Both the position numbers and the translations under genes were made by a program. The notes beneath the pieces are model-generated. The model was not told the origin of the DNA. It saw only the letters and a list, made by a program, of their open reading frames with translations, and ran no database searches. From NCBI GenBank assembly GCA_040880125.1, contig JBBDJB010000029.1, positions 12,188 through 76,187 of the forward strand: a DNA stretch of 64,000 bases, read 5' to 3'. This stretch comes from Pirellulales bacterium. Its GTDB lineage: Bacteria; Planctomycetota; Planctomycetia; Pirellulales; JBBDJB01. This document shows, piece after piece, positions 530 through 33,642 of this stretch (position 1 is the first letter of the stretch; each line of letters begins with the position of its first letter).

Positions 530-2419
530 ATGAATGAGCGATTTCCGTCGAGCCGCGAGCAATTCCAGCGAGTCCGCGCGGAACTTCACCACAGCAGCGG
601 GCGGCCGCAGGACGGGGGCCACAAACGACGCGATCGCTCGGCCGGCGCGCTGGTACGGAGCTTTGTAGGCCTATTACGTGGGCAGTATCTCTCGCTCGCA
701 CTGGCGCTGGGGACGCTCACGGTGGCGACGATCTTGGCGCTCGTGCCTCCGGCGGCGACGAAGTTGATCGTCGACTACGTGCTGGGGGATAAGCCTCTGC
801 CAAGCGCCGTGCCGGCTTGGGTGCCGCGCGATCCCTGGCCGTTGCTGCTAGCCGTGGCAGCCACGGTGCTTGTCATTTCGATATTGAAGATAGGAATCCA
901 GATCTGGGGTCGCTGGCACGCGACGCGAATCACGAAACTGTTGCAGATGTCGGTCCGCAAAAAGGTGTTCGCCCACGTCATGCGGTTGCCGCTGCATCGG
1001 ATTCAAGAGCTTAAGTCGGGCGGAGCGGCCAGTATCCTACGTCAGGACGCCGGCAGTGTGGGCGATCTGGTGTTCGGCATGCTCTACAACCCATGGCGGG
1101 CTGTTATCCAGTTGGTCGGCAGCTTCTGCATCCTGGCATGGGTCGATTGGCGGCTGTTGGTCGGAGCGCTGGCAGCCATGCCGATGGTCTACCTGTCGCA
1201 TCGCACTTGGATCTCCCGTATTCGGCCACAGTTTCGGCGGATTCGGTCCGAACGGGAAAGGGTCGACTCGCTCGCCACCGAGGCTTTTGGCGGCATGCGG
1301 GTCGTGCGGGCGTTCGGGCGGCAGCGGGCCGAGACGAGCCGGATCATGCGCGGCAACCATCTCATGGGACGGCAAGAGTTGTACGCGTGGCGGTGGATGC
1401 GAGGCATCGAACTCCTCTGGGAAACGCTGATGCCCTTGGCGGGCGCGGGGCTACTGATCTACGGCGGTTGGCAAGTGATCCAGGGCGCCCTATCACTGGG
1501 CGACCTGGTGATGTTTTTGGCCTACCTGGCGATGTTGCTTGGACCGCTGGGAGTCCTCGCGCAAAGCGCCGCGGAATTTCAGAATGGACTGTCGGGGCTC
1601 GATCGGATTCTCGATCTTCTCGAAGAGCCGCGCGAGATGGAGTCGCAAGCGGCCGTCACGATAAATCGTGCCGGCGTAGCTGGCGGAGTGACGTTTGAGA
1701 ACGTGTCATTCAGCTATCCCGGTTCTAGCACATTTGCATTGGAAGAGATTTCGCTTGACGTGAGGCCAGGCGAAACGATCGCACTGGTCGGCCCGAGTGG
1801 CGGCGGCAAGACGACGCTCTGCAATCTCGTGGCGCGGTTCTACGATCCGACGAGCGGGCGGATTCTACTAGACGGGCGAGACCTGTGCGGCATCGACGTC
1901 GAAGGCTACCGCAATCTGCTGGGAATCGTCGAGCAGGATGTATTTCTGTTCGACGGCACGGTTGGGACAAACATCTCCTACGGGCTCCGGCATTCCACGA
2001 AGGCTCAGATCCGTGAAGCAGCCGTCGCAGCCAATGCCGATAAATTTATCGACGCCTTACCCAGGGGTTATAACACGTTGATCGGCGAACGAGGGGTAAA
2101 GCTTAGCGGCGGCCAGCGGCAGCGGATTGCAATCGCCCGAGCCGTGCTCGCCGACCCGCGCATCTTGATCCTCGATGAGGCCACCAGCAATCTCGACACC
2201 GAGAGCGAACGTACGATTCAAGCAAGCTTGACGGAGTTGATGGAAAACCGCACATGCTTCGTGATCGCGCACCGCTTGAGTACGATCGCTCATGCGGACC
2301 GGATCGTCGTCTTGGAGGAGGGGCGGATCACAGAAGTCGGGGGCCACCAGACCTTGATGGCGACCGACGGCCGCTACCGAGAGATGGTGTTGCTGCAAAC
2401 CCGCCCGGCCGAGGTTTAG
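530..2419 (+). CDS. ABC exporter, fused permease + ATPase (MsbA/MdlB-like half transporter)
   Basis: N-terminal TM bundle; Walker A GPSGGGKT, signature LSGGQRQR, Walker B ILILDEAT, H-loop IAHRLST. Confidence 0.95.
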   Translation: MNERFPSSREQFQRVRAELHHSSGRPQDGGHKRRDRSAGALVRSFVGLLRGQYLSLALALGTLTVATILALVPPAATKLIVDYVLGDKPLPSAVPAWVPRDPWPLLLAVAATVLVISILKIGIQIWGRWHATRITKLLQMSVRKKVFAHVMRLPLHRIQELKSGGAASILRQDAGSVGDLVFGMLYNPWRAVIQLVGSFCILAWVDWRLLVGALAAMPMVYLSHRTWISRIRPQFRRIRSERERVDSLATEAFGGMRVVRAFGRQRAETSRIMRGNHLMGRQELYAWRWMRGIELLWETLMPLAGAGLLIYGGWQVIQGALSLGDLVMFLAYLAMLLGPLGVLAQSAAEFQNGLSGLDRILDLLEEPREMESQAAVTINRAGVAGGVTFENVSFSYPGSSTFALEEISLDVRPGETIALVGPSGGGKTTLCNLVARFYDPTSGRILLDGRDLCGIDVEGYRNLLGIVEQDVFLFDGTVGTNISYGLRHSTKAQIREAAVAANADKFIDALPRGYNTLIGERGVKLSGGQRQRIAIARAVLADPRILILDEATSNLDTESERTIQASLTELMENRTCFVIAHRLSTIAHADRIVVLEEGRITEVGGHQTLMATDGRYREMVLLQTRPAEV

Positions 2420-2456
2420 CCCTCCCGTAATCGCACCTCGTTTAACACCCGGACAA

Positions 2457-3881: not shown

Positions 3882-3890
3882 GCAGCCGTT

Positions 3891-4655
3891 TCACGCGTGT
3901 ACCGCGGCTCCGCCGTCGACTGTCAGCGTTTCACCCTGCACCAAGTCCGACAGGGCGCTGGACAAGAACAGTACACAATTTGCCACGTCGTCGGCGGTTA
4001 AGAAACGATCGCCGGTCATGCTTCGTAGCTTGCGCGAGGCGAATAATTGGTCGGCATAGGGGATGCGCCGGGTCGAGTCGGTCTCGACGAGGCCGGCCTT
4101 CACGATGTTGAGGTTTATGTCCTTGTCTCCCAACTCCAAGGCGAAATGCCGGATAAAGCTTTCCAGGGCAGCTTTCGAGCCCCCGACCGCGCCATACATC
4201 GGCAGCGCCATGTGCGAGCCGTGGCTGGAAATCGCCACAACCTTCGACCGTCCTTCGGCCCGCTGGAACAATCGCACGCTGGCTTGCACCAGGTGGATCA
4301 ACGCCATCACGTTCGTCTTCATCGTCGACTCAAAGTTCCTCTGCGTGATGGCCAGCATCGGCCGGAAGCCTCCGGTCGCGGCGTTGCTCACCAGGATATC
4401 AAGCTTGCCGAACTTCTCGTCGACGAACTCCATCATGGCGTCGATGTCATCCCGCTCGCTGATGTCCGCCTTGACGACCGCCGCATTGCGTCCCATCGCA
4501 GCGATACGCTCGGCGACTTCGTCGGCGGCCGCCTGCGAAGTGACGTAGTTGATAATCACGTCGGCGCCGGCTTCTGCCAGCCGCAACGCACAAGCACGGC
4601 CGATGCCACGAGATCCGCCAGTGACCAGGGCTTTGCGTCCACTCAAGTCGATCAT
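3891..4655 (-). CDS. Enoyl-ACP reductase, FabL-like SDR
   Basis: TGGSRGIG, NAATGGFRP and Y-x6-K (YGAVGGSK) spacing of FabI/FabL enoyl reductases, followed by AALES. Start moved to ATG 4655 (MIDLSGRK). Confidence 0.8.
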   Translation of the reverse strand: MIDLSGRKALVTGGSRGIGRACALRLAEAGADVIINYVTSQAAADEVAERIAAMGRNAAVVKADISERDDIDAMMEFVDEKFGKLDILVSNAATGGFRPMLAITQRNFESTMKTNVMALIHLVQASVRLFQRAEGRSKVVAISSHGSHMALPMYGAVGGSKAALESFIRHFALELGDKDINLNIVKAGLVETDSTRRIPYADQLFASRKLRSMTGDRFLTADDVANCVLFLSSALSDLVQGETLTVDGGAAVHA

Positions 4656-4712
4656 GCTCGTGTCTCTCGCTCGCAAAATATTAACGTAATAGATCCGAGA
4701 TATACGGGAGTC

Positions 4713-5438
4713 TCACGCCGAAGCCGCCATCAAGGGCTGAGAGCTCGCCGCGGCGCATTGGCTTGACATGCCCACCAAATCGGCCAGTGCCGCGAAGTGT
4801 CCGTCGATACGCCAGCTTTCGAGTCTCCGCACCGCCGCCGGGTCGAGGCCCGGATAGCGCGGCTCGCGCCCGGGCACAACTTCGATTCGCCCGGGGGTAA
4901 AGCCCTCGCCACACTGGGCAGCCTTGTACAAGGCCTCCTTCAGCGCCCAAATCTGTTCGACGGTTCGCAAGTGTGCCGGGCTGCTCGCCAGCCACTGCCG
5001 CTCGCGCGGGGAGAGGCTCCACTGCAGGCTCCGCACCATGACATCACCCCGGCAGACCAGGTCGACACCCAGTCTCTGCTCGGCGTCTCGCCCAAGCGCC
5101 ACCAGCACGCCCCGCGATGTGTGCGCAATCGACATCCCGACGTCTACCTTGCAGTCAGTGACATAAACAACCGGACGCTCGCCGTGTCCGAGCGTGGTCG
5201 AGCGCGTTTCGATATGAATCTCATTGGGCGTAATCTCATGTCTGCCCATTTCGTCCAGTAGCGGCAGGAGCATCCGCTTGGCCAGCACCCGGCCGCTCAC
5301 CCAGGTCAGGCGTCGCGTTTCGCAGTGCATGCGGTCACGAGCCCGGCGTTCATCGAGCGAGAGCCATCGCTCGGCCAATTGCGCGCCGTCGTCCGCAAGC
5401 TCGGATAGCCGTGCATATTGGCAGCGGATGCGCGCCAC
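4713..5438 (-). CDS. 4'-phosphopantetheinyl transferase (Sfp/HetI-type)
   Basis: SIAHT, LGVDL and WALKEALYKA motifs. Start placed at GTG 5438, just after the PKS stop, with a GGAG SD; the longer ORF overlaps the PKS. Confidence 0.88.
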   Translation of the reverse strand: MARIRCQYARLSELADDGAQLAERWLSLDERRARDRMHCETRRLTWVSGRVLAKRMLLPLLDEMGRHEITPNEIHIETRSTTLGHGERPVVYVTDCKVDVGMSIAHTSRGVLVALGRDAEQRLGVDLVCRGDVMVRSLQWSLSPRERQWLASSPAHLRTVEQIWALKEALYKAAQCGEGFTPGRIEVVPGREPRYPGLDPAAVRRLESWRIDGHFAALADLVGMSSQCAAASSQPLMAASA

Positions 5439-5440
5439 GC

Positions 5441-8400
5441 CTATCTCCCTCCCGCGCCGACGCGAATCGTGCGGTAGCCGTCGACCTGCAACAGCGGCTG
5501 CTCGTCTTCGCCGAACAATGTGAAGTCGAAGCGGCTGTGTCGCTCGCCGCGCTCGCGGAAAAAAAGACGTAGGATGCAGGTCGCTCCGGCGCGGGGCATG
5601 CGTGCCAGCCGCAGGTGCTCGAACGCGTAAGGCACCTCCAGCACGCCGCCGAACTGCAAGTACAGGAAGCTGCCGCAGGCGACGACGCAGGCGTCGAGCA
5701 CCGCCGGCGACGTTATCCAGTCGGTATCGCCGCGCGGCCCGGCCAGTTCGGACAGCGGCGGAGCGATGATCTTGCCCCAGCCGCCGTCGTATTGGTAGGC
5801 ACACTCTTTCAGGCATCGTAGCGGATCGCCATGAAAGAGCAGCCCTTCGTCCGGATAAGCGTGTGGAAACCATCCCAGCGGAGGCCGGCCGGGTGCATCG
5901 GCATGAATCGGCGAGCCGTCCGCCGTTGTGGGTATGAATCCCTCGACATGCAGCCGGGCCGGATCAATCATGCGGCCTTTGCGGTCGCGCTGCTCGGTCA
6001 GTAAGCGGCAGGCGAGGCCTCCTTCGACCGGGGCCACTTCGACACGCGCCCTGATCGGGCTATCGGTCGGAAAGAGCATGCCGTTTTCGATCCTCACGTT
6101 GCGCAGTTCGGATACTGCCCGTCTGTCCAGTGCACAAGACGCCGCTTCTGCCAGCGACTCCAGCCCGACTACGCCCGGCAGGAATGGCCGACTCTTGAGG
6201 CGGTGCTGGCTCAGAAAGGGATCGCCGAGTGGATCGAAGGCAATATCAGCGATGCCCCCACCGCCTTCGGAGGCGTGCCATGCGGCCACCAGCGGCGGAG
6301 TGCCGGAGTCTTTCTCCGAAACCTCTGCGGACGGGGCGTCGTTGCCGGTGGTAATCTCAACCTCGTAGGGATAGAACCGCCGCTGAAAGAAGCCATCGGT
6401 CACCAGCACTTCGCTGCGGGGAGTGCCGGCCCTCAACTCGTCGATTAAATGGGCCACGCCCTCGGCCGGCGAAATGAAGTCCATCTTGAAGGCGTTCTTG
6501 GTGATTCCTACGCCGTCTGCCAGCAGGGCCATGCCGACCGCGTCCCAGGTTTGCCAATGGAAACAGACGCTGTGGCATTCGGGCCGTCGGGTGCGAAACC
6601 AGCCGCAGAGCTTGGCCAGCATGTCATTGGCCGCGGCGTAGTCGCTCAGCCCGTTGCCGCCGAAGCGGCCGCTCAATGAGCCGAAGCCGACGAAGTAGCG
6701 GAGCGGATCGCCGCTGGTCAGGTGCATCAATGCGAGCGTGCCGCTGACCTTAGGGTCAATCGTGTCGCGCAGCTTGGCGGCCGCGCCGGTGCCAAAGCGA
6801 AAGCTCTTGGCGTAGCCGGCTCCGTGAATGATGCCTTCGATGGCGCCGTCCAGTTCGCGAATGGTCGTCAGCACGCGACCCAGATCGTCCCAGTCGGCCA
6901 CGTCGCAGACGTGATAAGTGGCCTCGACGCCGGCCTGGGCGAACCGGTCGAGCGATTGTTGGATTTCGCGGTCTTTGCGAACCCGGTCCCAGTCGTCGGT
7001 GGGCGATCGCCCTTCCAGCGTCGCCTTTCGCACGATCTCCGACTTGATCGCCTTGAGTTGTTCCTCAGTGCAGTTCTGCCACGGTGTATTCGGTTCCGGT
7101 GCGGGGCTCTTGCCGAGCAGATGCAGCTTGAGTCCATAGCGGCGACCGATCTCCAAGGCAGTTTCGGCCGTGATGCCGCGAGCCCCACCCGTGATGACCC
7201 ACACCCCGCCGCGCGGCAGTTCGCCCACCGGCAGCGCTTCGACCGGCTCGCGCTTTACCCGGACGACCTGGCGGCGGCCTCCGACATATGCAATTTCCAC
7301 CTCGGGCACGTCGGCGGTCAATTCTGCGCACACGGCCTCGGCCAACTCCGCCGGCGGCTCATCGGCCGGGGCATCAATTACCCTCACGTGAAAACGCGCG
7401 TGGTCGTAGCGGTCGTCCTCGACGAAGATCGACTTCAGCAGCCCCGTCAGGGCGCCGCCTTCGGGATTCGGCACGCCGGCATTGAAGCCGAAATCGCCGC
7501 CGAGGGAAATCAGGGCTACCAGTGTCGCCTGGCCTGCTTCCGGAGTCTTGCTAACGAGCTGAAACCACTTCCGCGTCACCCAGTAGGGCAGATAAACACC
7601 GCGCTCGATCCGCGCGGCCGCGGTTGAACAATCGTTCCACGCTTCGCTCGCCACATCGCGGGACGTGGCCAAAACGAGACATCGGGCCGGCGAATGTTCG
7701 AACGCCCGCTCCAACTCGGCACAGGTCGCTTCGGCGTCCGCGCCGGAGGGCAGCCGGTGTACTTGAACGCCGCGGGCAGCGAGGGTGGCGGCAAGCGACT
7801 CGGCATCGGGGTTGTCGCCCAACAAGAACGCTGACCCGGGCAGCGCTCGGGCGGGCGTGGACGCTGCCAACGGTGCGTCGAGCATGTGCATCGTCATGCG
7901 ATCGGCAACTCGCGACGCCGGCGATGCTAGCGAAGGGGATTCCGATGGTTGCGGCACTGCTGTGCCGGGGGCTCCCAACAGATCGTCGCGCTTGGCCACC
8001 TCATCGTAATTGTCCGCGTAGTACCGCTGGTGGTATTCCCAGTCGGTGACGAGCACCTCGGTGGCAGCCGGACGCGTGTACAACTCGCGGAGCAGGTGTC
8101 GCACGCCCGTCCGCTCGGGCATCAGCCGCAGGTTGCTGGCCTTGAGTATGGCCTCCGTGTCGGGTCGCGAGGCCATGCCCACCGCGTCCCAGGGGTGAAA
8201 GTGAATGCCGATCGCATGGACGTCGGGTCGCCAGCCGCGGTACCAGCCGGTGAGCTTGCAAAGCATATCGCTGGCGGCGGCGTAATCGGTCTGGCCATTG
8301 CTCCCCAGCCGGCCACTGATCGAGCCAAAGCCGATAAAATGACGTACCGGATCATCACGGGTCAGGTGCATGAGGTTGTAGGCGCCTAAAACCTTGCTGC

Positions 8401-14400: not shown

Positions 14401-16804
14401 AGGACGTGGAGTCGTGCGCCGCGCCAACTCCCCGCAGCACGGCGTGGATTCGATCGCCGTCGCGCTTGGCGTCGGCCAGCCGCTTAAGCAGAAAGACGAC
14501 GACGCCTTCGCCCGGCACGTGGCCTTGCGCATGCGCGTCCAGCGGCGAACGTGCGTCGCCCTCAGCCAAGTCGCCGCCGATGGCGAGGCTCTCGTAAATC
14601 GGCCAGCCCATACGGCGCTGGCCCGCGGCGCAGGCCATCAGATCGCAATCGCCGGCCAAGAGCATGTCGATGCTCGTCGAGAGCGCGGCCAGCCCCGAAG
14701 TCTGCCCGGCGTCGATGGCCGCGGCGCCGCCCATCGTGTTCCAGGTCTTGCCGATTCGCGATGCCAGCGAACTGGTGCTGAAGCTGCCAGTTTCGTCGAT
14801 CAGTGCGGGCCAGCGCTTGAGCAAAGCTTCGGCGTAGTTCTTGCCGACCTGGCGGGCCTGTTCCACACTAAAGCCGCGTCGAGTCAACAACGCCTCGAGG
14901 TGGCGCTCCAGCTCGGGCAAACGCAACCCGATCTGCAATTGGAAGGAGAAATCGCCGCCGAACTCCGTGCCCACGACGACGCCCATATTCTCGCGTGGGA
15001 AGGACCTTTCGTGATAGCCGGCGTCCTGCATCGCCTGGTCGGTCGCCTCGAGCAGCATGAACTGCAGGGGATCGGCCTGCTGCACCTGCTTGGGCGGCAC
15101 TTTGTGTCGCTTCCAGTCGTACTCGAAGTTGGCGATGAATGCTCCGCGGAGCGACTTCGGATCGGGAGCGCCCGGCTGAGGCGTTTTCAGCACGATGTCC
15201 GGCCGCCAGCGCTCCGGCGGCACCGGCGTCTTGGGATCGGTGCCGGAGGCCAGCAGGTTCCAGAATGCGGCGGGATTCTCCGCTCCCGGCAGAACGCACC
15301 CCAGCCCGATCACAGCAATGGCCTGCTCCTCGCTGGAGAGCTTTTGCTCCGGCGGACCGGGGACGGCGGCCGCCAGGTCGCGGCTCGACTCAGTGAACTC
15401 ATCGATCACTACATGCATATTGAGCCCGCCGATGCCGAACGCATTGACGCCCGCCCTGCGCGGCTTGCCGTCGGCCCGTTTAGGCCAGGCGACCGGCGTA
15501 GTGGGCACGTAAACCGGCGCCCGTTCCCAATCGATGTTGGGATTGAACTGGCGGATGTTGATCGCCGGCGGCACGATCTCGTTGTTCAGGGCCAGCACGG
15601 ACTTGATCACCCCGGCGATGCCGGCCGTTTCGAGCGAGTGGCCGATGTTCGCTTTGACGCTGGTGATCGGAATTCGCTTGCCGGGCGGCAAGCGCTGCCC
15701 GAGGATCTCGGTCAGCGTGTTCAGTTCCGTGGCGTCGCCTAGCTTGGTGGCCGTTGCATGGGCCTCGACATACTCCAAATCGGCGATATCCAGCCCGTCG
15801 CGGTAGGCACGTTCCATCGCCTTGAGCTGGCCTTCCTTGCGCGGAGCCCAGAGACTCTTCCCTTTGCCGTCGGATGAGACGCCCAGCCCGCGGACAACGG
15901 CCAGCACACGGTCGCCGTCGTCCAGAGCGCGCTTGAGCGTCTTCATGACCAGCGCCACGTAACCTTCGCCGCAGACCAGCCCGTCGGCATCGGCGTCGAA
16001 GGGACGTGTGCCGGTGGCGCTCATCGCGCGGGCGTTCGAGAACAGCACCAGCGAGTCGCTCTTGCAGTCCGATGCCCCGCCGACGATGGCCATGTCGACA
16101 CGGCCCAGTTGAAGAGCCCGGGCCCCCAGCAACATTGCCTGTAAGGACGAAGCACAGGCGGAGTTGATCGCCAGGTACGGTCCATTGAGGCCGAAAGCTT
16201 TGCTGATTGTGCCGGCCACGAGACTGGCGGAGACGTCCGGGGCATCGGCCGTGGGGCGCGGCAACGGTTCGCGCACACGCTGGATAAGCTCGGCGATGAT
16301 CGCCTGTTGTTCGGCTTCGGGCAGCGCGGCGAAATCCGGCACGTCGCGGAGGAACTCGGCGGCCTCCGTGATACAGCTCGAGTAGGTGTGGTCGCCGGCC
16401 TTGGTGCTGCCTTGGGCATGGCCCACGTAGACGCCGGTATTGGGCAGCGGCACGTTGAAAGGATCGATGCCGGCGTGCCGCAGGGCGGAGGCGGCCACGT
16501 CGCACATTAGCAAGTGAGCGATGTCCACCCGTTCCGCCAGCTTTTCATCAATGGGGCAGCGCGTGCGGTCGAACGTGCGGCTGGAGATGATTGCCCCCAG
16601 CTTTGAGTAGGTCTTACCACGTACGCCGACTTTGGGATCGAAGTACATGTCCTGGTCGAGCCGATCCGGTGGCAGCTCCACGACGGCGCTGCGCCCTTCG
16701 ACGAGCATCCGCCAGTACTGATCCAGATCGTCTGCCCCGGGAAGGCGGCAGGCCATTCCTACGATGGCCACAGGAACTTGGTGCGGAAGGTAGGGGTCGG
16801 CCAT
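5441..16804 (-). CDS. Pfa/Hgl-like iterative type I PKS, 3787 aa: KS-KS(Q)/CLF-ACP-ACP-AT-ACP-ACP-C45-like-KR-KR-DH
   Basis: KS1 intact triad (NSACASS, EAHATAT, NIGHSLE). KS2 DAGQTS with both His lost. AT FPGQGSQ/GHSYG/SPFH. Four LGIDSIK ACPs. Two TGGARGI...YAAA KRs. DH DPFLSQHRLKSRPFLPG...DAC. Confidence 0.95.
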   Translation of the reverse strand: MADPYLPHQVPVAIVGMACRLPGADDLDQYWRMLVEGRSAVVELPPDRLDQDMYFDPKVGVRGKTYSKLGAIISSRTFDRTRCPIDEKLAERVDIAHLLMCDVAASALRHAGIDPFNVPLPNTGVYVGHAQGSTKAGDHTYSSCITEAAEFLRDVPDFAALPEAEQQAIIAELIQRVREPLPRPTADAPDVSASLVAGTISKAFGLNGPYLAINSACASSLQAMLLGARALQLGRVDMAIVGGASDCKSDSLVLFSNARAMSATGTRPFDADADGLVCGEGYVALVMKTLKRALDDGDRVLAVVRGLGVSSDGKGKSLWAPRKEGQLKAMERAYRDGLDIADLEYVEAHATATKLGDATELNTLTEILGQRLPPGKRIPITSVKANIGHSLETAGIAGVIKSVLALNNEIVPPAINIRQFNPNIDWERAPVYVPTTPVAWPKRADGKPRRAGVNAFGIGGLNMHVVIDEFTESSRDLAAAVPGPPEQKLSSEEQAIAVIGLGCVLPGAENPAAFWNLLASGTDPKTPVPPERWRPDIVLKTPQPGAPDPKSLRGAFIANFEYDWKRHKVPPKQVQQADPLQFMLLEATDQAMQDAGYHERSFPRENMGVVVGTEFGGDFSFQLQIGLRLPELERHLEALLTRRGFSVEQARQVGKNYAEALLKRWPALIDETGSFSTSSLASRIGKTWNTMGGAAAIDAGQTSGLAALSTSIDMLLAGDCDLMACAAGQRRMGWPIYESLAIGGDLAEGDARSPLDAHAQGHVPGEGVVVFLLKRLADAKRDGDRIHAVLRGVGAAHDSTSWGHALELAMQRTFSDGATRPADVALMELDALGDNNATAQEVRAVAEVYGKGGRPRPLLLSSILGQLGNTQGASSLVSLLKAVLEVSHGELPPAVGLKAAAPFVTEHGNVLAAPAARTAIELTTADGRRLAAVGTCSRGLAYHAVLEYGSRVASAAPTPAPAPQVEASPSAASASPALASNAAAISVNVGELEQFLVNFVVEQTGYPPEVIELDADLEADLGIDSIKKAQMFGELQEYFDVTPTDDLTLDDFPTLRHIVEFLAKVPQRESAAPAQAPASATAVPAPSQSEAALAPATHPAPAAQPAPANVDLAELEQFLINFVVEQTGYPPEVVELDADLEADLGIDSIKKAQMFGELQEYFDVTPTDDLTLDDFPTLRHIVEFLAKAPQKGTASPTPEPAAPAPIPAAASAQASSPTPAPAASMPAPTAAAAAPSFPPATQSAATSEGRMSGTWRICRFGGADAAALRRAIEAAQSDTGTLDASSRRRFSSEDRFRLAIVVDSSEALSTKLGLALKQMDNAAAQTVLEQQGVFYRQANPDTRIAYLFPGQGSQYTGMLRQLVDEVPAVRARQAQIDSVMIRLGYPGWAQLAWDEASPLGKDVWITQVSMLLADVLVAAALEEHGITPDLVAGHSYGEYPALLAAGAWDLEQAIRVTRHRCESITAFPGGQGGMLATTATPEVIEQMAPRVAGPVFVANHNAPDQTVVGGTLPALAELEKMLQVGMYETRMLPVPSPFHTPLMANAAARFAQQIAAERFQAPRVTTYSVATNRVIRDPSEIGRNLVAHLTTPVRYAELVRDLAAQGPTVFVEVGPQQALSRLNRRNLAAHEYAGIACDNPSRPGVEQIMRVQALLECSGAMDRQRSTTSVLAPAAVTPVERGEIWHFDATARRRAKMRQSSGRNGQPGVPSGRSAGVTAPAQAAIDRAAPAVPAPAPAPAPAPASSAPAVAAPAAVADPSKPAASSAVNLAELEKFLINFVVEQTGYPPEVVELGADLEADLGIDSIKKAQMFGELQEYFDVTPTDDLTLDDFPTLRHIVEFLAKVPQKGAATSTPAPSGAAPQPEPAAAPAPTATSAPLTAAVPAPTSVASPQSTAPPEAASPAASGVDVAELEQFLINFVVEQTGYPAEVVELDADLEADLGIDSIKKAQMFGELQEYFDVTPTDDLTLDDFPTLRHIVEFLAKVPQKDTAAPTQTPAASEPAAPGPATAPPAVSSAAGMTAAATAECVATKVDILHVRGTPYEMGRQHGLEKKTEIQLLLRRVADLTDGDWGELPLPTEARSNPQVFFTTDQWDELRGLADALEVPAGNLAALNLTVQSDFAAGIAQVALLPGASSAGVLHGLVGELSLPAALTEVLTPFVLVREPAQGWACATVTFAGLVGSLVGLNANGLAASTGALLNSAAGSNGSASHPTTMRIDGLLQRSDTLERAASSLRGVKTSRGWTTCLSHQAQRRLCAAEHDGQHLAEQDAAGPVVATNHCVLHTASVPAPAASLERFDWLRQRLTASDSPQTASELLQALADMPERGTLRLIAVVDAAAGDLLLDCGTLRQRVHVGALLPAAPAGDPATFGSNGSPPTAKETPAPQLAPEPKVTTASPSSDDLLDRSSDDRESMRFVLRMFPMPWDKQPADFPAFKGAAAVCGSNSLADALCQRLTEGGATVVRLAESHSPEAAVTELERHWQQQPIMHLFLTGLRDETLTDRTDPAGFDQVYRERVLLPYYLCQRQMQLAADAKRLRDCTVVTTLDLGGDLGFSGKVASPESGFATGLMKSLLLEYGIMREQKGFLAKAIDAPRGESPGRLATNICRELAYGTNDYELSFVNGRRYLQVALPEYADLETHSDVRPGGTWVLTGGARGITARCGLELARRFGLKLHLIGTTPAEPIDSDWRNLDEQQTAQLRTRVIVDARKNGKKPNEAWAQVAKAIEIDRNLQSFKVAGVRYTYHACDVADRAALSRVLDDVRRADGPIEGILHGAGVEQASRFEKKTRQTVEATVGSKVLGAYNLMHLTRDDPVRHFIGFGSISGRLGSNGQTDYAAASDMLCKLTGWYRGWRPDVHAIGIHFHPWDAVGMASRPDTEAILKASNLRLMPERTGVRHLLRELYTRPAATEVLVTDWEYHQRYYADNYDEVAKRDDLLGAPGTAVPQPSESPSLASPASRVADRMTMHMLDAPLAASTPARALPGSAFLLGDNPDAESLAATLAARGVQVHRLPSGADAEATCAELERAFEHSPARCLVLATSRDVASEAWNDCSTAAARIERGVYLPYWVTRKWFQLVSKTPEAGQATLVALISLGGDFGFNAGVPNPEGGALTGLLKSIFVEDDRYDHARFHVRVIDAPADEPPAELAEAVCAELTADVPEVEIAYVGGRRQVVRVKREPVEALPVGELPRGGVWVITGGARGITAETALEIGRRYGLKLHLLGKSPAPEPNTPWQNCTEEQLKAIKSEIVRKATLEGRSPTDDWDRVRKDREIQQSLDRFAQAGVEATYHVCDVADWDDLGRVLTTIRELDGAIEGIIHGAGYAKSFRFGTGAAAKLRDTIDPKVSGTLALMHLTSGDPLRYFVGFGSLSGRFGGNGLSDYAAANDMLAKLCGWFRTRRPECHSVCFHWQTWDAVGMALLADGVGITKNAFKMDFISPAEGVAHLIDELRAGTPRSEVLVTDGFFQRRFYPYEVEITTGNDAPSAEVSEKDSGTPPLVAAWHASEGGGGIADIAFDPLGDPFLSQHRLKSRPFLPGVVGLESLAEAASCALDRRAVSELRNVRIENGMLFPTDSPIRARVEVAPVEGGLACRLLTEQRDRKGRMIDPARLHVEGFIPTTADGSPIHADAPGRPPLGWFPHAYPDEGLLFHGDPLRCLKECAYQYDGGWGKIIAPPLSELAGPRGDTDWITSPAVLDACVVACGSFLYLQFGGVLEVPYAFEHLRLARMPRAGATCILRLFFRERGERHSRFDFTLFGEDEQPLLQVDGYRTIRVGAGGR
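10841..13834 (-). repeat. Four near-identical 228-bp ACP-coding repeats (13607-13834, 13238-13465, 11264-11491, 10841-11068)
   Basis: ELE(Q/K)FL(V/I)NFVVEQTGYP(P/A)EV(I/V)EL(D/G)ADLEADLGIDSIKKAQMFGELQEYFDVTPTDDLTLDDFPTLRHIVEFLAK(V/A)P occurs four times, separated by Pro/Ala-rich linkers. Confidence 0.95.
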
Positions 16805-16993
16805 GCTGGTGATTCGCCCGATGTTGCGGGTGTCTAGAGATTCACCTCCGTGGTGCGGACTGTACGCCGCCTACGCGTGCCCTCCGTGGGATGTGGTGCG
16901 GTCGTCGGAAGGAGTCGCCGGAACGCTGTCGCTGCGGCGCTCGCATCAGGCCCCGTCAGAGGCCCGACAACGGGCGACGTCTCCGACGCACGT

Positions 16994-18457
16994 CTAATTT
17001 ATTGCATGCGTTGCTACTCGGTCGCCCATTTGACCGGAAACGACTTTCTCGAAAGCACCTAAGAACTGTTCTAGGCGGCGGCCCTCCTGGTGTACAACAA
17101 GCCGGCCCGAATTGATCGCTGCCTCAACGGACATCTCGCCCCGGGCGAGCTTCGCAAAGGTACGGGCGGAAAGATAGAAGCCACCAGCCGTACCCGACGG
17201 CAAGCCCCACTCGACGCCCGATAGTTCCCCCCCGGAGATGTGCAACTGCCACTGTCCCCCGCCGGGTCCGTTCACCTGCAGGGCGATCGCTTCGCCGGCC
17301 GAGCCTTCCTGCAACGACAGTCCATCAATATGGGCCGCCACATCGAACTCTACCGCCGGCGCTTCATGCCGCGGCGGCATGAAGTTCCGCTCTACCGGGT
17401 AGCGCGACACTCGCAGCAATACGTCGTACGTCATCTTCGGGCACGGCAGGTGCGGAAGCGCCGCCCGAGTGTTGGTCAGGTCGAACTTGGGATCGTCGCG
17501 CCAGTGCGAACGATAGATCGACATGTACTCGTAGAACAACGCTTCTAGCTTGGACAGTTCGGCCTCGGAGACCGAAGTGGCCAAGGGGCGGGGATAGTAG
17601 CGCTCGATCGCGTCGCGGATCACATGTTGAATCTCTGCGATCGGCACCGGATCTGGCGAGGCCAGATGATAGGTCTGGCCGTGATGCTGGGCGTGCGTCA
17701 CCAGTTCGACAATGGCCGCCGAAAGCCAATCGACGGGCACCAGATTCTTGCCTTCGTGCCCTTGCAGGCCGAGCTTGGCGAAGAATCGCTCGTTCATCTC
17801 CTTCACCGGCACGCGGCCCGCGATGGTATAGGCCAACTGAAGCGGAAGGTAGAACCCGTGGAAGTTGGTGACGTAGCCGCTGTGGGAGTCCCCCAGCACG
17901 CTGGCTGGACGGTAGAACGTACGCTGGTCGAGAAAGTCGGCCGCGCGGATCATCTTTTCGGCTTCGAGCTTGCTCTTTTCGTAGACGTTTCCTAGCGACT
18001 GGCCAACGTCGACGTCGGACTCGAGGATCTGGCCCTGGCGAAGCCCGCAAATGTAGGCCGTGGAGACATGATGATATTGGCGGATACCCGCCGTCTGGCA
18101 AAGCCGCAACAGGTTGCGCGTGCCGTCCACGTTCGTGCGAAACGGCTCACCCCGCTTGTCCTCGCGGAAGGTCATGCTTGCCGCACAGCTCAAGATGGTG
18201 CCGCAGTGCTTTGCCAACCAGCGGCGCTGCTCGGCATCGGGGACGACGTCGTCTAAGCACAAGTCGCCTTCGATGATGACGGGGCGAGGTAATGCCCGGC
18301 CGGCTTGCTGCTCCCAGTGACCCAAAATTCCGGCGAGCGTTGCGGGCCCTTTGCCGGGGCGAACCATCGCCGCGACCGGAACGTCGGCCGCCAGCAGATC
18401 ACGCAGCAGATAACGTCCCACGAGGCCCGTGGCGCCTGTCAGAAGGAGGTAGCTCAT
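16994..18457 (-). CDS. Thioester reductase (extended SDR, R/TD domain) with C-terminal SCP2-like domain
   Basis: LLTGATGLVG, NVDGTRN, HVSTAY, YEKSK, RPASVLG, LVPVDW. C-terminal LQVNGPGGGQWQLHI...TFAKLARGEMSVEAAINSGRLVV is SCP2-like. Start ATG 18457 with GGAG SD. Confidence 0.85.
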   Translation of the reverse strand: MSYLLLTGATGLVGRYLLRDLLAADVPVAAMVRPGKGPATLAGILGHWEQQAGRALPRPVIIEGDLCLDDVVPDAEQRRWLAKHCGTILSCAASMTFREDKRGEPFRTNVDGTRNLLRLCQTAGIRQYHHVSTAYICGLRQGQILESDVDVGQSLGNVYEKSKLEAEKMIRAADFLDQRTFYRPASVLGDSHSGYVTNFHGFYLPLQLAYTIAGRVPVKEMNERFFAKLGLQGHEGKNLVPVDWLSAAIVELVTHAQHHGQTYHLASPDPVPIAEIQHVIRDAIERYYPRPLATSVSEAELSKLEALFYEYMSIYRSHWRDDPKFDLTNTRAALPHLPCPKMTYDVLLRVSRYPVERNFMPPRHEAPAVEFDVAAHIDGLSLQEGSAGEAIALQVNGPGGGQWQLHISGGELSGVEWGLPSGTAGGFYLSARTFAKLARGEMSVEAAINSGRLVVHQEGRRLEQFLGAFEKVVSGQMGDRVATHAIN

Positions 18458-18538
18458 GCGGCAGTCTCTTCTCCGGGGGCACCGCTTCCAACCCAGGAAG
18501 CTGCCGCTCTTTGCGCGGGTCAAGTGGCGTGGGTATCG

Positions 18539-18567
18539 ATTCTACTGACGGCTTCGAATGCAGTCAA
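18539..18567 (-). promoter_or_regulatory. Internal sigma70-type promoter upstream of thioester reductase-PKS-PPTase-FabL
   Basis: Minus strand TTGACT (18567-18562) - N17 - TAGAAT (18544-18539). Confidence 0.7.
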
Positions 18568-18633
18568 CATGGGGCATATAAACAGATTGCGGCGATTGAG
18601 GAGATGCTGCCGAGCGCCGTGCTCCGGTGCCCT

Positions 18634-19482
18634 TCACAACCGGGCACGCACGTCAACGGGCATGAACTCACGCTTCTCATCGCGTGCCACGCGACTGACG
18701 CCGACGCGAGGATCATGATTCCACATAATCCACCAGCCTTCGTCGGCCGCCCGGCCCAGCCACTGGGGCTTCCGTTGCCGGGTCACGACCGGATAGGTGT
18801 CGTAGGACAGGTGCCACATGCGGCGCAGATGAATCGTTGATGGACAGATATCGCCCAGGTAGGCAGCCGTTTGGCCTCCGGATTCGAACACCATAGCCAT
18901 ATGGCCGCGGGTGTGGCCGCCGGTGACGTAGCCGGTCAGGCCGGGCACGAGCTGCTGGCCGTCTTCGACAACCATCATCAAACCGGCTTCGTACAGCGGC
19001 AGAATGTCTTGGAGTGGATAGGCAGTCTCCAATTCCGGCAATCGCCCGGTGGCATCCTCCCATTCAATCCGTCCGACCAGGTGCCGAGCGCGCGCGAAGA
19101 TCGGAACGGGGTGCCGGGCGGCATCGAATCGGGTGGCACCACACACGTGGTCGAAGTGCAAATGGCTGAAAACCAGCGTATCGACATCCTCGGGCACTAC
19201 GCCCAAGGCGGCGAGTCCTTCAACGAGCGGCTCGCCTTCCTCCATGTTGTAAAACCGCCGGTCGAGCGGGGCGAACTTGCCGCCGTATCCCGTGTCGATA
19301 AGCACCGTGTGCGTGCCGTCGCGGGCCAGAACGCAATTGTTAGCGCAAGGGATGCGGTTGTAGTCGTCCGGCGGCGCCACGTTCTTCCATACAGTTTTCG
19401 GCACGACGCCGAACATGACCCCGCCATCGAGCCAGAACTGGCCGCCGTTGATCGTGTCGAGCTGCCAGTTGCCGAGATTCAT
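18634..19482 (-). CDS. Metallo-beta-lactamase-fold hydrolase (YtnP-like)
   Basis: LDGGVMFGVVPK N-terminus, LIDTG, HLHFDH, GHTRGH, GD and terminal HDP metal ligands. Confidence 0.9.
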   Translation of the reverse strand: MNLGNWQLDTINGGQFWLDGGVMFGVVPKTVWKNVAPPDDYNRIPCANNCVLARDGTHTVLIDTGYGGKFAPLDRRFYNMEEGEPLVEGLAALGVVPEDVDTLVFSHLHFDHVCGATRFDAARHPVPIFARARHLVGRIEWEDATGRLPELETAYPLQDILPLYEAGLMMVVEDGQQLVPGLTGYVTGGHTRGHMAMVFESGGQTAAYLGDICPSTIHLRRMWHLSYDTYPVVTRQRKPQWLGRAADEGWWIMWNHDPRVGVSRVARDEKREFMPVDVRARL

Positions 19483-19580
19483 CAGGTTCTCAATAAACCG
19501 CGGGACGGTGAACGGCCAAGTGGAGGGCGGTGAAGTGCGTGGAAAGCTACGCCCGCCGTGGAAGGCGTTGGGTTAAGGCG

Positions 19581-21044: not shown

Positions 21045-21046
21045 TC

Positions 21047-22402
21047 TCAGGCAAGTAGCACGGCTCGAGCCCCATCCTCGATCCGCTCCAGCACGACGGA
21101 GACGTCACCGTGCGAGTGTGCGGTCGAAAGGAATAGCGGCTCGAACTGGTTCGGGTGGAAATACACGCCCGACTGCTGAAGCTGATGTTGAAAGCGAATG
21201 TACTTGTCGAAATCGCAGTAGCGGCGTACGTCACGATAATTGGTGATCGGACCCGCGTCGCCATGGGTCAACAGCAGCGAGATCATCGGGCCGACGTGGT
21301 GTACTCGATGCGGAATGCGCAGTCGAGTGAAGATCTCCTCGACACCGTTGGCCAAGGCCGTCGACACGCTTTCCAAGTGGTGATAGATGGCCGGGCCATT
21401 GGCTTGCAACTCGTCCAGGACGGCATCGGCGGCGGCCATGACCAGGGAATTGCCCGAGTAGACGCCGCCGTGGAACAGGCGCCCCTCGACGATTGACTGC
21501 ATGACTTCCCGAGTGCTGCCCAGGGCGGAGATCGGGAAGCCACCACCTAGCGCTTTGCTGAGGATCGTGATGTCGGCCTCGACGCCGAACCGCTGTTGAG
21601 CGCCGCCCGGCGCCACTCGCATGCCGGTGATCACTTCGTCAAAAATTAACAGTGCGCCGTGCTCGTGAGTGAGCGCCCGCGCGACATCGAGATAGTCGGC
21701 ATTCGGCGGTACAACGCCGCCGTTGCCCATGACTGGTTCCATGATTACCGCGGCCACAACGCCGGCGTGGTCGGACAGGCACTGCTCGAGCGCTTCGGGC
21801 GAGTTCCAGCGGCAGACCAGCACGTCGTGCGGCGCGCCGTTCATCCCCAAGGTTCCCGGCATAGCGGGGCCGTACGGGCCTGCCGGCAAGTCCTCGAGCG
21901 GGGCATGGTAGCGATTGAAGATCGCGTCGCTCGACCCGTGGTAATGCCCCTCAAAGGCGACGATGTACCGCCGTTGGGTAAAGGTTCGGGCCAGTCGCAA
22001 CGCCGCGGCGATGGCTTCGCTGCCGGTGCTGGAAAACCGTAGCAGTTCGATGTTCGGGTAAAGCAGCTTGACTTTCTCGGCTACGCGAGCCGTCAATTCG
22101 GCCGGGAAGCCCAACTGGCTACCACTTTCGGTGAGTTGTCGCACTACCGCGTCGATCACCCCGGGCGGCCGATGGCCGAAGATCAGCGGTCCGTAGGCCA
22201 TGTTGAGGTCGATATACTCTTGTCCGTCGACATCCCAAATCGTGGAGCCCTGACCGCCGGTAGCCACCAGGGGCAGGTGATAAGGCAGGACGCGCATGGT
22301 GCTGTTATCGCCGCCTGCGATGCTTTGGCGAGCGCGTTCCAACTGCCGCTGGGAGTTACTGGAAGTCGCTTCGAACAACTTGCCGTTTGTTATTTGCATC
22401 AT
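21047..22402 (-). CDS. Class III PLP aminotransferase (GSA-aminomutase-like)
   Basis: YIDLNMAYGPLIFGH, STGSEA, FEGHYHG, MEPV, LIFDEVITG, SKALGGG. Confidence 0.9.
   Translation of the reverse strand: MMQITNGKLFEATSSNSQRQLERARQSIAGGDNSTMRVLPYHLPLVATGGQGSTIWDVDGQEYIDLNMAYGPLIFGHRPPGVIDAVVRQLTESGSQLGFPAELTARVAEKVKLLYPNIELLRFSSTGSEAIAAALRLARTFTQRRYIVAFEGHYHGSSDAIFNRYHAPLEDLPAGPYGPAMPGTLGMNGAPHDVLVCRWNSPEALEQCLSDHAGVVAAVIMEPVMGNGGVVPPNADYLDVARALTHEHGALLIFDEVITGMRVAPGGAQQRFGVEADITILSKALGGGFPISALGSTREVMQSIVEGRLFHGGVYSGNSLVMAAADAVLDELQANGPAIYHHLESVSTALANGVEEIFTRLRIPHRVHHVGPMISLLLTHGDAGPITNYRDVRRYCDFDKYIRFQHQLQQSGVYFHPNQFEPLFLSTAHSHGDVSVVLERIEDGARAVLLA

Positions 22403-25196: not shown

Positions 25197-25200
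<4 letters not shown>
22690..25200 (-). CDS. ABC transporter permease, duplicated FtsX/MacB-like
   Basis: Two repeats of TM + periplasmic domain + 3 TM, with ERRHDLAVLRVLGA and EQTRELGLLRIIGM motifs. Confidence 0.9.
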
Positions 25201-25922
<722 letters not shown>

Positions 25923-26150
25923 CAAAGGCTTCCGAGAGTGCCGTGTGCGACGTATGGCGGGGGGCGATCACACGCAAATCCCGACGGTTGCCTGCCACGC
26001 GGCAGCCCGTGGAGGATCAGGTCTCGCGGGGCGCGCAAGTTACCGCAGATTTCCTAAATTGCCAATCATACATTAAAATCCTGGCTTGGCGATGGGCCGG
26101 TCATGTGACCAACGCCCCCGATTCCATTCCCGTTTGCCCCCGCGCTGAGC

Positions 26151-28016: not shown

Positions 28017-28029
28017 CGACAGGTAGACG

Positions 28030-31277: not shown

Positions 31278-31351
31278 CCAGATGAATGCCGCCACCGCGA
31301 CCCTCTCCGGAATGCGGGCTGTGGGCTCCCCAAGATTTTCTTCGGATTTTA

Positions 31352-31378
31352 TGTCCCCCCGGCGGCCGGGCTCCCGCT
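31352..31378 (+). promoter_or_regulatory. Candidate ECF-sigma promoter TGTCCCC-N16-CGCT, copy 1
   Basis: Identical motif and spacing recur at 32369-32395; AT-rich tract just upstream. Confidence 0.6.
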
Positions 31379-31475
31379 TGGTCAGTTAACAAGGGACGAC
31401 ACGACCGGCCAAACGGCCGCGAAAAGTCGCCCAGGACCAAAACCACACGGGAAAACGAGACTCAGGAGCCCAATC

Positions 31476-32228: not shown

Positions 32229-32262
32229 GCGTGAGGGCTTTCAAGCACGTTCCACTCAACGA

Positions 32263-32297
32263 GTCGCCGGTCCTTTCGAGGGCCGGCGGCTTTTTTT
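32263..32297 (+). terminator. Rho-independent terminator
   Basis: Stem GTCGCCGGTCCT / TTCG loop / AGGGCCGGCGGC followed by T7. Confidence 0.9.
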
Positions 32298-33610: not shown

Positions 33611-33642
33611 AACCCCTGCAGCCTCCGGCGCTGAATGATTCG

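Follow-up and report, generated by a model that had tools for sequence, protein, structure and literature searches.

A conserved megasynthase gene cluster of Planctomycetia that may make a nitrogen-containing envelope lipid

A 64,000-nucleotide stretch of a Pirellulales genome (assembly GCA_040880125.1, contig JBBDJB010000029.1, positions 12,188 to 76,187; hereafter the window, in which positions are counted) carries a gene cluster built around a giant Pfa-like polyketide synthase (PKS). This cluster is conserved, is uncharacterised and, judged from its genes, may make a new kind of nitrogen-containing envelope lipid. By gene content, the family to which it belongs is a core, consisting of the PKS, a FabL-type enoyl reductase (ER), a stand-alone thioester reductase (TR) and usually a condensation-superfamily acyltransferase (the condensation enzyme), joined in nine of 15 genomes by an accessory trio of a class-III aminotransferase, an acyl-AMP/CoA ligase and a metallo-beta-lactamase-fold (MBL) hydrolase. 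The reading that we favour, tentatively and with not quite even confidence, is a dedicated secondary-lipid pathway in which a long chain released by the TR would be aminated and acylated. The domain and motif content supports the original prediction, made from the same DNA, of a Pfa/Hgl-like secondary-lipid cluster, with predicted reductive release.

Gene run in the window

The nine genes between 530 and 22402 are real (Table 1): the long open reading frames (ORFs) lie exactly where the original prediction had listed them, and Pfam and NCBIfam confirm each one. The G+C content is about 62-65% across the whole region. Two genes on the + strand, for an MsbA-like ATP-binding cassette (ABC) half-transporter and for the condensation enzyme, converge with the - strand genes from FabL through the aminotransferase. 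The spacing is tight: aminotransferase and ligase are 2 nt apart, as are the PKS stop and the probable start of the gene for a 4'-phosphopantetheinyl transferase (PPTase), and there are 4-nt overlaps elsewhere. Catalytic motifs are intact in every enzyme checked, namely the ketosynthase (KS), acyltransferase (AT), acyl carrier proteins (ACPs), TR, MBL, ligase and aminotransferase. The sequencing runs that match all or part of the stretch are three DNA runs from two studies (a fourth is listed for its study alone), with no RNA run among them.

The window ORFs scanned contain no glycosyltransferase, no adenylation domain of a nonribosomal peptide synthetase (NRPS), no peptidyl carrier protein, no PfaD-type ER and no FabA-type dehydratase (DH); for PfaD, the search covered the window alone. 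The parts said earlier to be missing are thus absent from the scanned ORFs for NRPS, PfaD-type and FabA-type functions. The claim for a glycosyltransferase stands locally and does not stand genome-wide, where contig C53 has a TR-glycosyltransferase-condensation locus (described below).

Conservation of the cluster

A search of 41 related genomes with a C45-like piece of the PKS found it inside giant ORFs in three of them, G017, G022 and G024 (G, C and L numbers label genomes, contigs and loci; G000 is the window genome). Named genome records scanned with a C45-like alignment gave 43 loci, seven embedded in a PKS (two of these being duplicates of known loci) and 36 that were stand-alone C45 proteins or unrelated; all seven embedded loci are Planctomycetota bins. 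In a 401-genome sample of the phylum, the end of the PKS with the second ketoreductase (KR) and the DH matched 60 genomes at E<=1e-30. Full-length matches (E<1e-120) were found in eight, namely G000, G024, G413, G218, G299, G314, G426 and G439, and the other 52 have different Pfa-like enzymes at roughly 26-36% identity. With G017, G022 and G041-G045, the PKS family was found in 15 genomes, and the cluster family is confined to Planctomycetia in what was searched. The close relatives from named records (L006-L012) are all labelled metagenome-assembled genomes.

The trio is present in nine of the 15 PKS genomes and adjoins the PKS in eight; in G017 the same genes lie on two contigs, the trio being apart as the PKS contig ends inside the PKS. 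Two gene orders were found. In the window clade (G041-G045, five syntenic and fairly close relatives with 53-94% protein identity) the order is two divergent secreted proteins, ABC ATPase, MacB/FtsX permease, aminotransferase, ligase, MBL, TR, PKS, PPTase and FabL, with the condensation gene convergent. In G024 and G413, whose proteins are 31-64% identical to those of the window, it is MMPL/HAE3 transporter, MBL, PKS, PPTase, Rieske oxygenase, FabL, TR, aminotransferase, ligase and condensation enzyme, so that the MBL is separated from the aminotransferase and ligase yet co-occurs with them. In the 401-genome sample, ligase orthologues (E<=1e-60) and aminotransferase orthologues (E<=1e-100) occur in three genomes each, the same three (G000, G024 and G413) and each time inside the cluster; these three represent two independent lineages, and the count is not to be read as a statistic. 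The condensation gene stands beside the PKS in 13 of the 15 genomes.

The original prediction depended on co-conservation of the aminotransferase, ligase and condensation genes with the PKS, and refutation on this ground fails because the same genes recur together in other genomes and in two orders. At the level of the family, the association holds for the nine trio-bearing genomes and does not extend to six PKS genomes that have kept the PKS and FabL, and mostly the TR and the condensation gene, without the trio. The condensation gene adjoins the PKS in four of these six. G022 has TR-PKS-FabL-Cond alone, between pilus and polysaccharide genes; G218 and G426 have TR-PKS-Rieske-FabL-Cond with a PKS of one KR and no C45-like part; and G314 has TR-PKS-FabL, with no condensation homologue found with the window query. 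No MBL relative at E<=1e-15 was found in G022, G314 or G426, and G218 has a distant copy interrupted by a stop, G299 and G439 not having been tested for MBL. In a TR tree the trio-bearing clusters fall in two clades, one of which groups with trio-less G314 (support 87/87); the backbone is unresolved, and a single and a double gain of the trio cannot be told apart.

The Rieske-type oxygenase and the lipid-type MMPL/HAE3 transporter of the resistance-nodulation-division (RND) class in G024 and G413 are located at L004 8099-9262 and L005 2134-4443, and at L061 8201-10420 and L062 3333-4493. A Rieske oxygenase homologue (31-32% identity) lies between PKS and FabL in G218 and G426 (L058 536-1660, L064 651-1709), and the window cluster has no Rieske gene.

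Synthase and its partners

The PfaA model matches the KS, the chain-length factor (CLF), the AT and both KRs of the megasynthase at 104-291 bits. The phosphopantetheine-binding stretches number four and are arranged in two pairs; they correspond to a 300-nt DNA repeat family, and because its copies are 76-81% identical, the ACP count is unlikely to result from an assembly artefact or collapse. The PKS has no ER domain, and its DH is not FabA-type (FabA E 0.095). The FabL-type protein next to the PKS, which is 61-94% identical in relatives, is likely to be the trans-acting ER of the synthase. For the PPTase, a GTG start at 5438 is probable instead of 5873, given that the first 145 residues of the longer ORF lie over the PKS end and that alignments with relatives begin at residue 146. 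By their predicted functions, the synthase, FabL and PPTase would together supply all activities for a long, mostly saturated, possibly hydroxylated acyl-ACP.

Between the second ACP pair and the KRs, the synthase has about 350 residues without any Pfam match, in which a four-sequence profile finds PDB 2x1c, isopenicillin-N acyltransferase (IAT), at E 3.5e-9. The nucleophile Cys of autoproteolytic C45 enzymes is not present; its aligned column holds Ile2128 in the window PKS, and the domain is therefore probably inactive here. Among distinct relatives this column holds Cys in L008, L009, L065 and L002, Ser in L006 and L061, Ala in L007 and L010, and Thr, Met and Gly once each. Since the column is so variable, the C45-like domain looks like a decaying relic in most lineages, its function apparently being lost. 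We found no paper describing such an embedded domain in the literature on C45/isopenicillin N acyltransferase and polyketide synthases.

Release, amination and acylation enzymes

The TR has an intact Rossmann motif and YxxxK, from which the two- or four-electron outcome of the reduction is not readable. Its claimed fusion to an SCP2-like domain was accepted on two grounds beyond the weak Pfam match: the tail is kept in 11 of 12 aligned relatives, and the five best PDB matches of a structure model of the tail (pLDDT 80) are all sterol carrier proteins (E 2e-4 to 5e-4, TM 0.52-0.59). The assignment as TR-SCP2 thus has moderate support from the predicted structure.

The aminotransferase scores 372 bits with the HemL subfamily model of NCBIfam (cut-off 398), 361 bits with TIGR00713 (cut-off 527) and 326 bits with GntE. 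Its best PDB match, 4zm3, is an unnamed 'aminotransferase' (E 1e-99), followed by glutamate-1-semialdehyde aminomutases. Because the same genome has another HemL-like gene elsewhere (37% identity to the cluster enzyme), the cluster aminotransferase is a specialised paralogue and not the housekeeping HemL of the haem pathway. The best PDB match of the ligase is FadD13 (E 4e-38), followed by MenE and malonyl-CoA synthetase. The MBL scores 175 bits with the YtnP lactonase model (cut-off 425), and its solved relatives are 3esh (E 1e-39) and then organophosphate/lactone hydrolases.

In the condensation enzyme, H144, D148 and G149 are invariant in 28 homologues. It is neither a wax ester synthase/diacylglycerol acyltransferase (WS/DGAT; 44 bits, cut-off 310) nor a PapA5 proper (26 bits, cut-off 396). 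An AF2 model built from the 28 homologues (pLDDT 89) has the predicted fold of condensation (C) domains, two-lobed and chloramphenicol-acetyltransferase-like, with 255 PDB matches at E<=0.001; the top Foldseek matches are NRPS C domains, AzeD (8s6l), SgcC5 and the teicoplanin X-domain (TM 0.53-0.68). By sequence, the solved relatives are 8s6l (E 3e-8) and one NRPS only. Since 8s6l is called 'phthiocerol/phthiodiolone dimycocerosyl transferase' by the sequence tool and 'AzeD dehydratase' of Pseudomonas aeruginosa in the fold library, the 'PapA5' label of the best sequence match is not taken at face value. A collection of 5.8 billion proteins holds 150 homologues, none functionally named among the 120 matches listed, and the named sources are Planctomycetota/Pirellulales metagenome bins.

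Homologues of the condensation gene also occur in other contexts. On contig C53 of the window genome (L066 1817-9119), a TR paralogue (38% identity), a GT28/EryCIII-like glycosyltransferase and a DegT sugar aminotransferase on the + strand are grouped with a GT2 glycosyltransferase and a condensation paralogue (34-35% identity) on the - strand; this five-gene group looks like a glycolipid-type cassette. It was considered as a conserved partner of the cluster and dropped, as its TR and condensation paralogues have no orthologues in G041-G045: the search with the former matched only the cluster's own TR, and that with the latter found the cluster gene and, in G041 and G045, stray copies at 34% identity (these searches did not cover the glycosyltransferases). 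Directly after a condensation homologue (29-32% identity) in G048 and G359 comes a membrane fatty-acid desaturase gene (L067 10055-12483; L068 10386-12845). The C53 and desaturase contexts point to lipid substrates for the condensation family, as does the lipid-type MMPL/HAE3 transporter of G024 and G413, and they suggest that TR and condensation enzyme work as a pair.

Transporters and neighbouring genes

The MsbA-like half-transporter had been proposed as the exporter of the cluster. The adjacency to the condensation gene is missing in all five close relatives (none at E<=1e-8), so we dropped this candidate; by synteny it appears to be a neighbour specific to the window genome. Upstream of the aminotransferase are a MacB/FtsX-type permease and its ATPase, which are syntenic in all five close relatives. 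The limit at 22402 given originally was probably drawn too narrowly: the cluster is likely to extend to 25925, with the MacB-type ABC genes, and perhaps to 30165. No MacB permease orthologue (E<=1e-40) was found in G024, G413, G022, G218 or G314, and no membrane-fusion protein was recognised next to the MacB genes. Judged by gene order, the conserved exporter is predicted to be the MacB-type ABC in the window clade and an MMPL protein in the G024/G413 clade.

Whether the two secreted proteins at 26151-30165 belong to the cluster is uncertain. In the Atlas, one is DUF3352-like and the other has a weak, partial LBP/BPI/CETP-like match (TM 0.43), which serves as a lead only.

Further downstream (31286-35537, + strand) are four consecutive ORFs of 214-409 aa without any Pfam family. 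An extracytoplasmic-function (ECF) sigma factor, a TolC-like outer membrane protein, an HlyD-type adaptor and an AcrB-type RND pump follow at 35922-43308; this block is a general efflux system that is not conserved with the cluster. At 45251-50774 is a planctomycete-specific pair, PSCyt1/PSCyt2/PSD1 (DUF1549/DUF1553) with Laminin_G_3 and then DUF1501. The housekeeping block at 51227-62429 encodes PyrF-like, diacylglycerol-kinase-fold lipid kinase, LpxI, LpxD-like, RseP-type M50 protease with PDZ, Dxr and FtsH proteins.

Table 1. Predicted genes and domains of the cluster and its flanks, with window coordinates and the matches on which the assignments are based.
Feature	Position	Strand	Evidence and remarks
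MsbA-like ABC half-transporter	530..2419	+	ABC_membrane and ABC_tran; MsbA 441 bits (cut-off 602); 38 nt upstream of condensation gene
Stand-alone condensation-superfamily acyltransferase, 474 aa	2457..3881	+	Pfam Condensation E 5e-13; HHACCDG at residue 143
FabL-type enoyl-ACP reductase (short-chain dehydrogenase/reductase)	3891..4676	-	NCBIfam FabL is best match, 256 bits (cut-off 328); Y-x6-K spacing
4'-Phosphopantetheinyl transferase	4713..5438	-	Pfam ACPS E 4e-10; ORF runs to 5873
Iterative Pfa-like type I PKS/fatty acid synthase, 3787 aa	5441..16804	-	KS - CLF(Gln) - 2 ACP - AT - 2 ACP - C45/IAT-like - KR - KR - DH
KS (aa 11-478), active Cys217	15371..16774	-	Pfam ketoacyl-synt E 4e-56; PfaA 291 bits; SACASS
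Second KS-like domain (aa ~495-897), chain-length-factor type	14114..15322	-	ketoacyl-synt E 4e-42; DAGQTSG, Gln replaces Cys
ACP 1 and 2 (Ser1025, Ser1148)	13235..13837	-	PP-binding; DSIKKA motifs
Acyltransferase, FabD-like	11927..12769	-	Acyl_transf_1 E 2e-34; FabD 184 bits; GHSYGE
ACP 3 and 4 (Ser1806, Ser1947)	10835..11497	-	PP-binding; DSIKKA motifs
Embedded C45/isopenicillin-N-acyltransferase-like domain (aa ~2030-2380)	9665..10717	-	NCBIfam C45_proenzyme E 3e-18, 66 bits (cut-off 85)
KR 1 (aa 2652-2873)	8186..8851	-	Pfam KR E 4e-29; K/S/Y residues kept
KR 2 (aa ~3200-3421)	6542..7207	-	Pfam KR E 2e-29; K/S/Y kept; matches KR 1 at 39%
PKS-type dehydratase (aa ~3522-3785)	5450..6241	-	PS-DH E 2e-8; PKS_DH_N E 3e-7; FabA E 0.095
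Stand-alone thioester reductase	16994..18523	-	NAD_binding_4 E 4e-35; TGATGLVG, YEKSK
SCP2-like lipid-binding C-terminal domain of TR	16997-17341	-	Pfam SCP2 E 0.012
MBL hydrolase, lactonase/esterase type	18634..19482	-	Lactamase_B E 2e-19; HLHFDH
Acyl-AMP/CoA ligase, 487 aa	19581..21044	-	AMP-binding E 2e-45; TSGTTGQPK
Class-III (HemL-like) aminotransferase	21047..22402	-	Aminotran_3 E 5e-61; Lys283
MacB/FtsX-type ABC permease	22690..25200	-	Two FtsX and two MacB_PCD; co-oriented, upstream of aminotransferase
ABC ATPase partner of MacB-type permease	25197..25925	-	ABC_tran E 1e-32; 4-nt overlap with permease
Two divergently transcribed secreted proteins, 621 and 711 aa	26151..30165	+	No Pfam match; N-terminal signal-like hydrophobic segments; syntenic in 5/5 close relatives

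Proposed pathway and alternative readings

In the pathway that we favour, the TR would hold the greasy chain by its SCP2-like tail and release it as an aldehyde, which the HemL-like class-III aminotransferase would convert to a primary long-chain amine. The HHxxxDG condensation enzyme would then acylate this amine (or a hydroxyl of the chain), the acyl donor coming either directly from the synthase ACPs or as acyl-CoA/AMP made by the FadD13-like ligase, and the lipid would leave the cytoplasmic membrane via the MacB-type ABC transporter. The role of the MBL is the least clear; it may release or edit an acyl thioester or ester intermediate that feeds the ligase. In the trio-less relatives, the product of the core would be an alcohol, formed by reduction of the chain and then esterified by a logic like that of wax esters or of phthiocerol dimycocerosates (PDIM), and the window cluster would be an amine/amide derivative of this core. 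The amide or ceramide-like product named in the original prediction is likewise putative. A long, partly hydroxylated chain is a reasonable guess, because Hgl-type synthases give an (omega-1)-hydroxylation pattern and hydroxy fatty acids of this kind are known from Pirellulales. In a cultured strain of this order, these are C28-C35 (omega-1)-hydroxy and dihydroxy fatty acids (PMC6995999). The cluster family itself is too patchy (8/401) to be a general source of planctomycete hydroxy fatty acids.

The individual steps have precedents. In zeamine biosynthesis the TR Zmn14 reduces the thioester, an aminotransferase converts the chain end to an amine, and Zmn19, a stand-alone C enzyme, couples to it an acyl group held on an ACP (PMC5811116). 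Similarly, a preprint on tambjamine BE-18591 has the acyl-ACP reductase TabE and the omega-transaminase TabA making a fatty amine (bioRxiv 10.1101/2025.08.11.669332).

Several findings weigh against this pathway. G022, G218, G299, G314, G426 and G439 (99-100% complete) have the PKS, with no aminotransferase or ligase orthologue anywhere. Of these, G218 and G314 each consist of a single contig and are 99% complete. In core-only genomes the condensation enzyme evidently works without an amine acceptor; because trio-less genomes keep its gene beside the PKS, by this comparison it should not depend on such an acceptor in general. The best solved relative of the TR is MxaA (PDB, E 9e-16), which reduces all the way to alcohol, and the closest solved relatives of the aminotransferase are the unnamed 4zm3 and aminomutases. 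The mycosubtilin aminotransferase (AMT) domain is also among the solved relatives of the cluster aminotransferase (E 1e-52); this domain aminates beta-keto thioesters, and amination could therefore take place within the chain, not at its end. The MBL is of the lactonase type and not of the glyoxalase-II thioesterase type, and the model strictly requires neither MBL nor ligase. Moreover, the MacB synteny is confined to one clade of fairly close relatives and could reflect inheritance rather than function.

In a second explanation, which we consider possible but rather unlikely, the end product is oxygen-linked here as in the trio-less relatives: a very-long-chain alcohol or diol, or its ester made by the condensation enzyme, perhaps glycosylated by enzymes encoded elsewhere. 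The trio would then make or attach a small polar or amino head group or a starter, and would leave the chain end unaminated. The core TR-PKS-FabL-Cond stands without the trio in G022, G218 and G426, the TR is in the fatty acyl reductase family (NAD_binding_4), the condensation enzyme is faintly WS/DGAT-like, and the C53 locus pairs a TR paralogue with GT28-type, DegT, GT2 and condensation proteins; the hydroxy and dihydroxy acids of the Pirellulales strain would also fit. However, the aminotransferase and ligase orthologues occur only inside this cluster type (3/401) and directly beside the TR in the window clade, the cluster has no head-group enzyme, and amine formation by a TR and then a class-III aminotransferase is well established. 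If amination is instead within the chain, the product might be a zeamine-II-like cationic amino-alcohol, with the aminotransferase modifying beta-keto-ACP intermediates again and again as the chain grows, and perhaps the final aldehyde too. The (poly)amino chain would be a secreted membrane-active antibiotic, and the ABC proteins would serve for export and self-protection. AMT domains acting on beta-keto thioesters among the solved relatives, two or three exporters nearby and a parts list that fits the zeamine polyamine branch, as two papers describe it (PMC5811116; PMC13291983), are what this proposal can call on. We nevertheless judge it improbable, for the aminotransferase is free-standing and not fused to an ER protein, the condensation enzyme has no NRPS/PKS partner, the same synthase type lacks an aminotransferase in six genomes, and the sequence gives no sign of iterative amination.

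The ligase could also act at the other end of the pathway, adenylating a fatty acid that is loaded on an ACP and elongated by the PKS, after which the MBL would hydrolyse the product to a free very-long-chain (hydroxy) fatty acid, with TR, aminotransferase and condensation enzyme as a side branch. Among solved proteins the ligase is closest to FadD13, an activator of very long fatty acids; FadD-type ligases work together with PKSs and a PapA5-type acyltransferase in PDIM-type pathways; and the acids of the Pirellulales isolate are again of the expected kind. With its 487 aa, however, the ligase is shorter than fatty acyl-AMP ligases, which have an additional insertion; the KS-CLF(Gln) pair points to a synthase that primes itself from malonyl-ACP; the ligase is missing in six genomes with the same synthase type; and the MBL is a lactonase type. 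Priming by the ligase thus seems to us scarcely probable. That the genes are merely neighbours by descent and not one pathway is the least credible of all, in our view very nearly negligible: the five syntenic genomes are indeed fairly close relatives (53-94% protein identity), but the same set is reordered in G024 and G413 at 31-64% identity, its co-occurrence in the 401-genome sample is strict, and the genes are tightly spaced with 2-nt gaps and 4-nt overlaps.

A more specific form of the amine/amide pathway, which is speculative and which we would expect to be wrong in its full detail, is that some Pirellulales make a hitherto unrecognised class of nitrogen-containing envelope lipids that are neither glycerol-based nor sphingoid. 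The proposed molecules are 'amide waxes', in which a very-long-chain (omega-1)-hydroxylated alkylamine would carry another long chain as its N-acyl group; they would be built in the order PKS, TR-SCP2, aminotransferase and condensation enzyme and delivered to the outer layers by the MacB-type ABC with secreted carriers, or by MMPL, and the trio-less cores would make the matching ester/diol lipids. If true, this would explain the origin of planctomycete very-long-chain hydroxy fatty acids. The cluster may also lead to the genes that give rise to C28-C35 (omega-1)-hydroxy fatty acids in the Pirellulales isolate (PMC6995999). Envelopes in the host group, Planctomycetia, are unusual, and few of its metabolites have been characterised. 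The occurrence of one core in two forms, one that has the amine-forming module and one that lacks it, is a natural comparison, by which the role of reductive amination in lipid biosynthesis is directly testable. The PKS-embedded penicillin-acyltransferase-like domain, the TR-SCP2 fusion and the FabL-type trans-ER are reusable curiosities of enzymology. As a lead the cluster is solid and testable and brings its own natural control, but its family is one of many that are uncharacterised.

Comparison with known systems

We found no characterised counterpart of this cluster, in agreement with the original prediction, and the homologues of its condensation enzyme have no functional names. Nor did we find a description of the cluster type in the literature on planctomycete Pfa-like clusters, hglE-type KSs, wax esters and TRs, PUFA-like synthases with an aminotransferase, long-chain amines and Pirellulales lipidomes, supplementary cluster tables not being covered. 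In Shulse & Allen 2011, planctomycetes have types I and J only, both of other architectures, and a paper on alkylresorcinols has nothing on type I systems. Few products of Pfa-like 'secondary lipid' synthases are known; PMC13291983 names heterocyst glycolipids, phenolic lipids, zeamines/fabclavines, megapolipeptins and chitinimines. In its logic the cluster comes nearest to the polyamine branch of zeamine, and it is a full member of none of the systems compared.

With zeamine and fabclavine (Zmn10-14, Zmn19), the shared features are a Pfa-like synthase with KS/CLF, tandem ACPs and two KR activities (PMC5811116; PMC13291983), and also a stand-alone TR, an aminotransferase, neighbouring export genes and a free-standing C enzyme, whose acceptor in zeamine is the amine; synthase, TR, aminotransferase and C enzyme are all four co-conserved here. 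On the other hand, the aminotransferase is here a separate HemL-like protein, whereas in zeamine it is a domain of the PfaD-like subunit. The ER is FabL-type and not PfaD-type, FabA-type DH pairs are lacking, and so is an NRPS/PKS partner. A single polypeptide, with a C45-like domain, makes up the synthase, the AMP-ligase and MBL are additional, and the host belongs to Planctomycetota and not to Enterobacterales.

The heterocyst glycolipid pathway consists of the Hgl synthase, the reductase HglB/HetM, HglT and the exporter DevBCA, and makes a C26-C32 chain. It resembles our cluster in its Pfa-like synthase, a reductase for the release of the chain (in our cluster a predicted role) and a MacB/FtsX-type ABC (DevCA-like) beside the genes. 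It differs in that our cluster has no glycosyltransferase, that the synthase is fused and not split, and that the aminotransferase, ligase, MBL and condensation enzyme are added. Wax-ester synthesis shares an NAD_binding_4-family reductase and an HHxxxDG acyltransferase, and is a plausible model for the trio-less clusters. Here, however, the WS/DGAT score is 44 against 310 bits, the fold is nearest to NRPS C domains, and the acyl chain comes from a dedicated PKS.

Mycobacterial PDIM is made and exported by Pps/Mas PKSs, FadD ligases, PapA5, MmpL7 and DrrABC. Both systems combine PKS-made long chains with a condensation-type acyltransferase that stands alone, and both include an acyl-AMP/CoA ligase together with an ABC exporter or an MMPL, the latter in G024 and G413. 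The differences are a PapA5 score of 26 against 396 bits, a PKS that is iterative and Pfa-like instead of modular, and the presence of an aminotransferase and of a predicted reductive release. TamA/TamH are the counterpart in the tambjamine alkylamine tail pathway. In the TabQ/TabJ/TabE/TabA pathway, as given in the preprint, an acyl thioester is likewise converted to an aldehyde and then to a fatty amine, with an acyl-activating step (10.1101/2025.08.11.669332). There, primary metabolism supplies the chain, a C12 one, which is attached to a bipyrrole, whereas our cluster has a dedicated megasynthase and a condensation enzyme.

Finally, PfaABCD of polyunsaturated fatty acid synthesis share the KS, CLF, FabD-like AT, tandem ACPs and a PfaA-like KR with insertion (PfaA 104-291 bits). 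Our cluster has no FabA-type DH/isomerase or PfaD ER, because of which polyunsaturation is not expected, and its release is predicted to be reductive and not by acyl transfer. What is new in detail, compared with all these systems, is a synthase that unites tandem KRs and a C45-like insert in a single polypeptide, the fusion of TR and SCP2, a trans-ER of the FabL type and the accessory trio.

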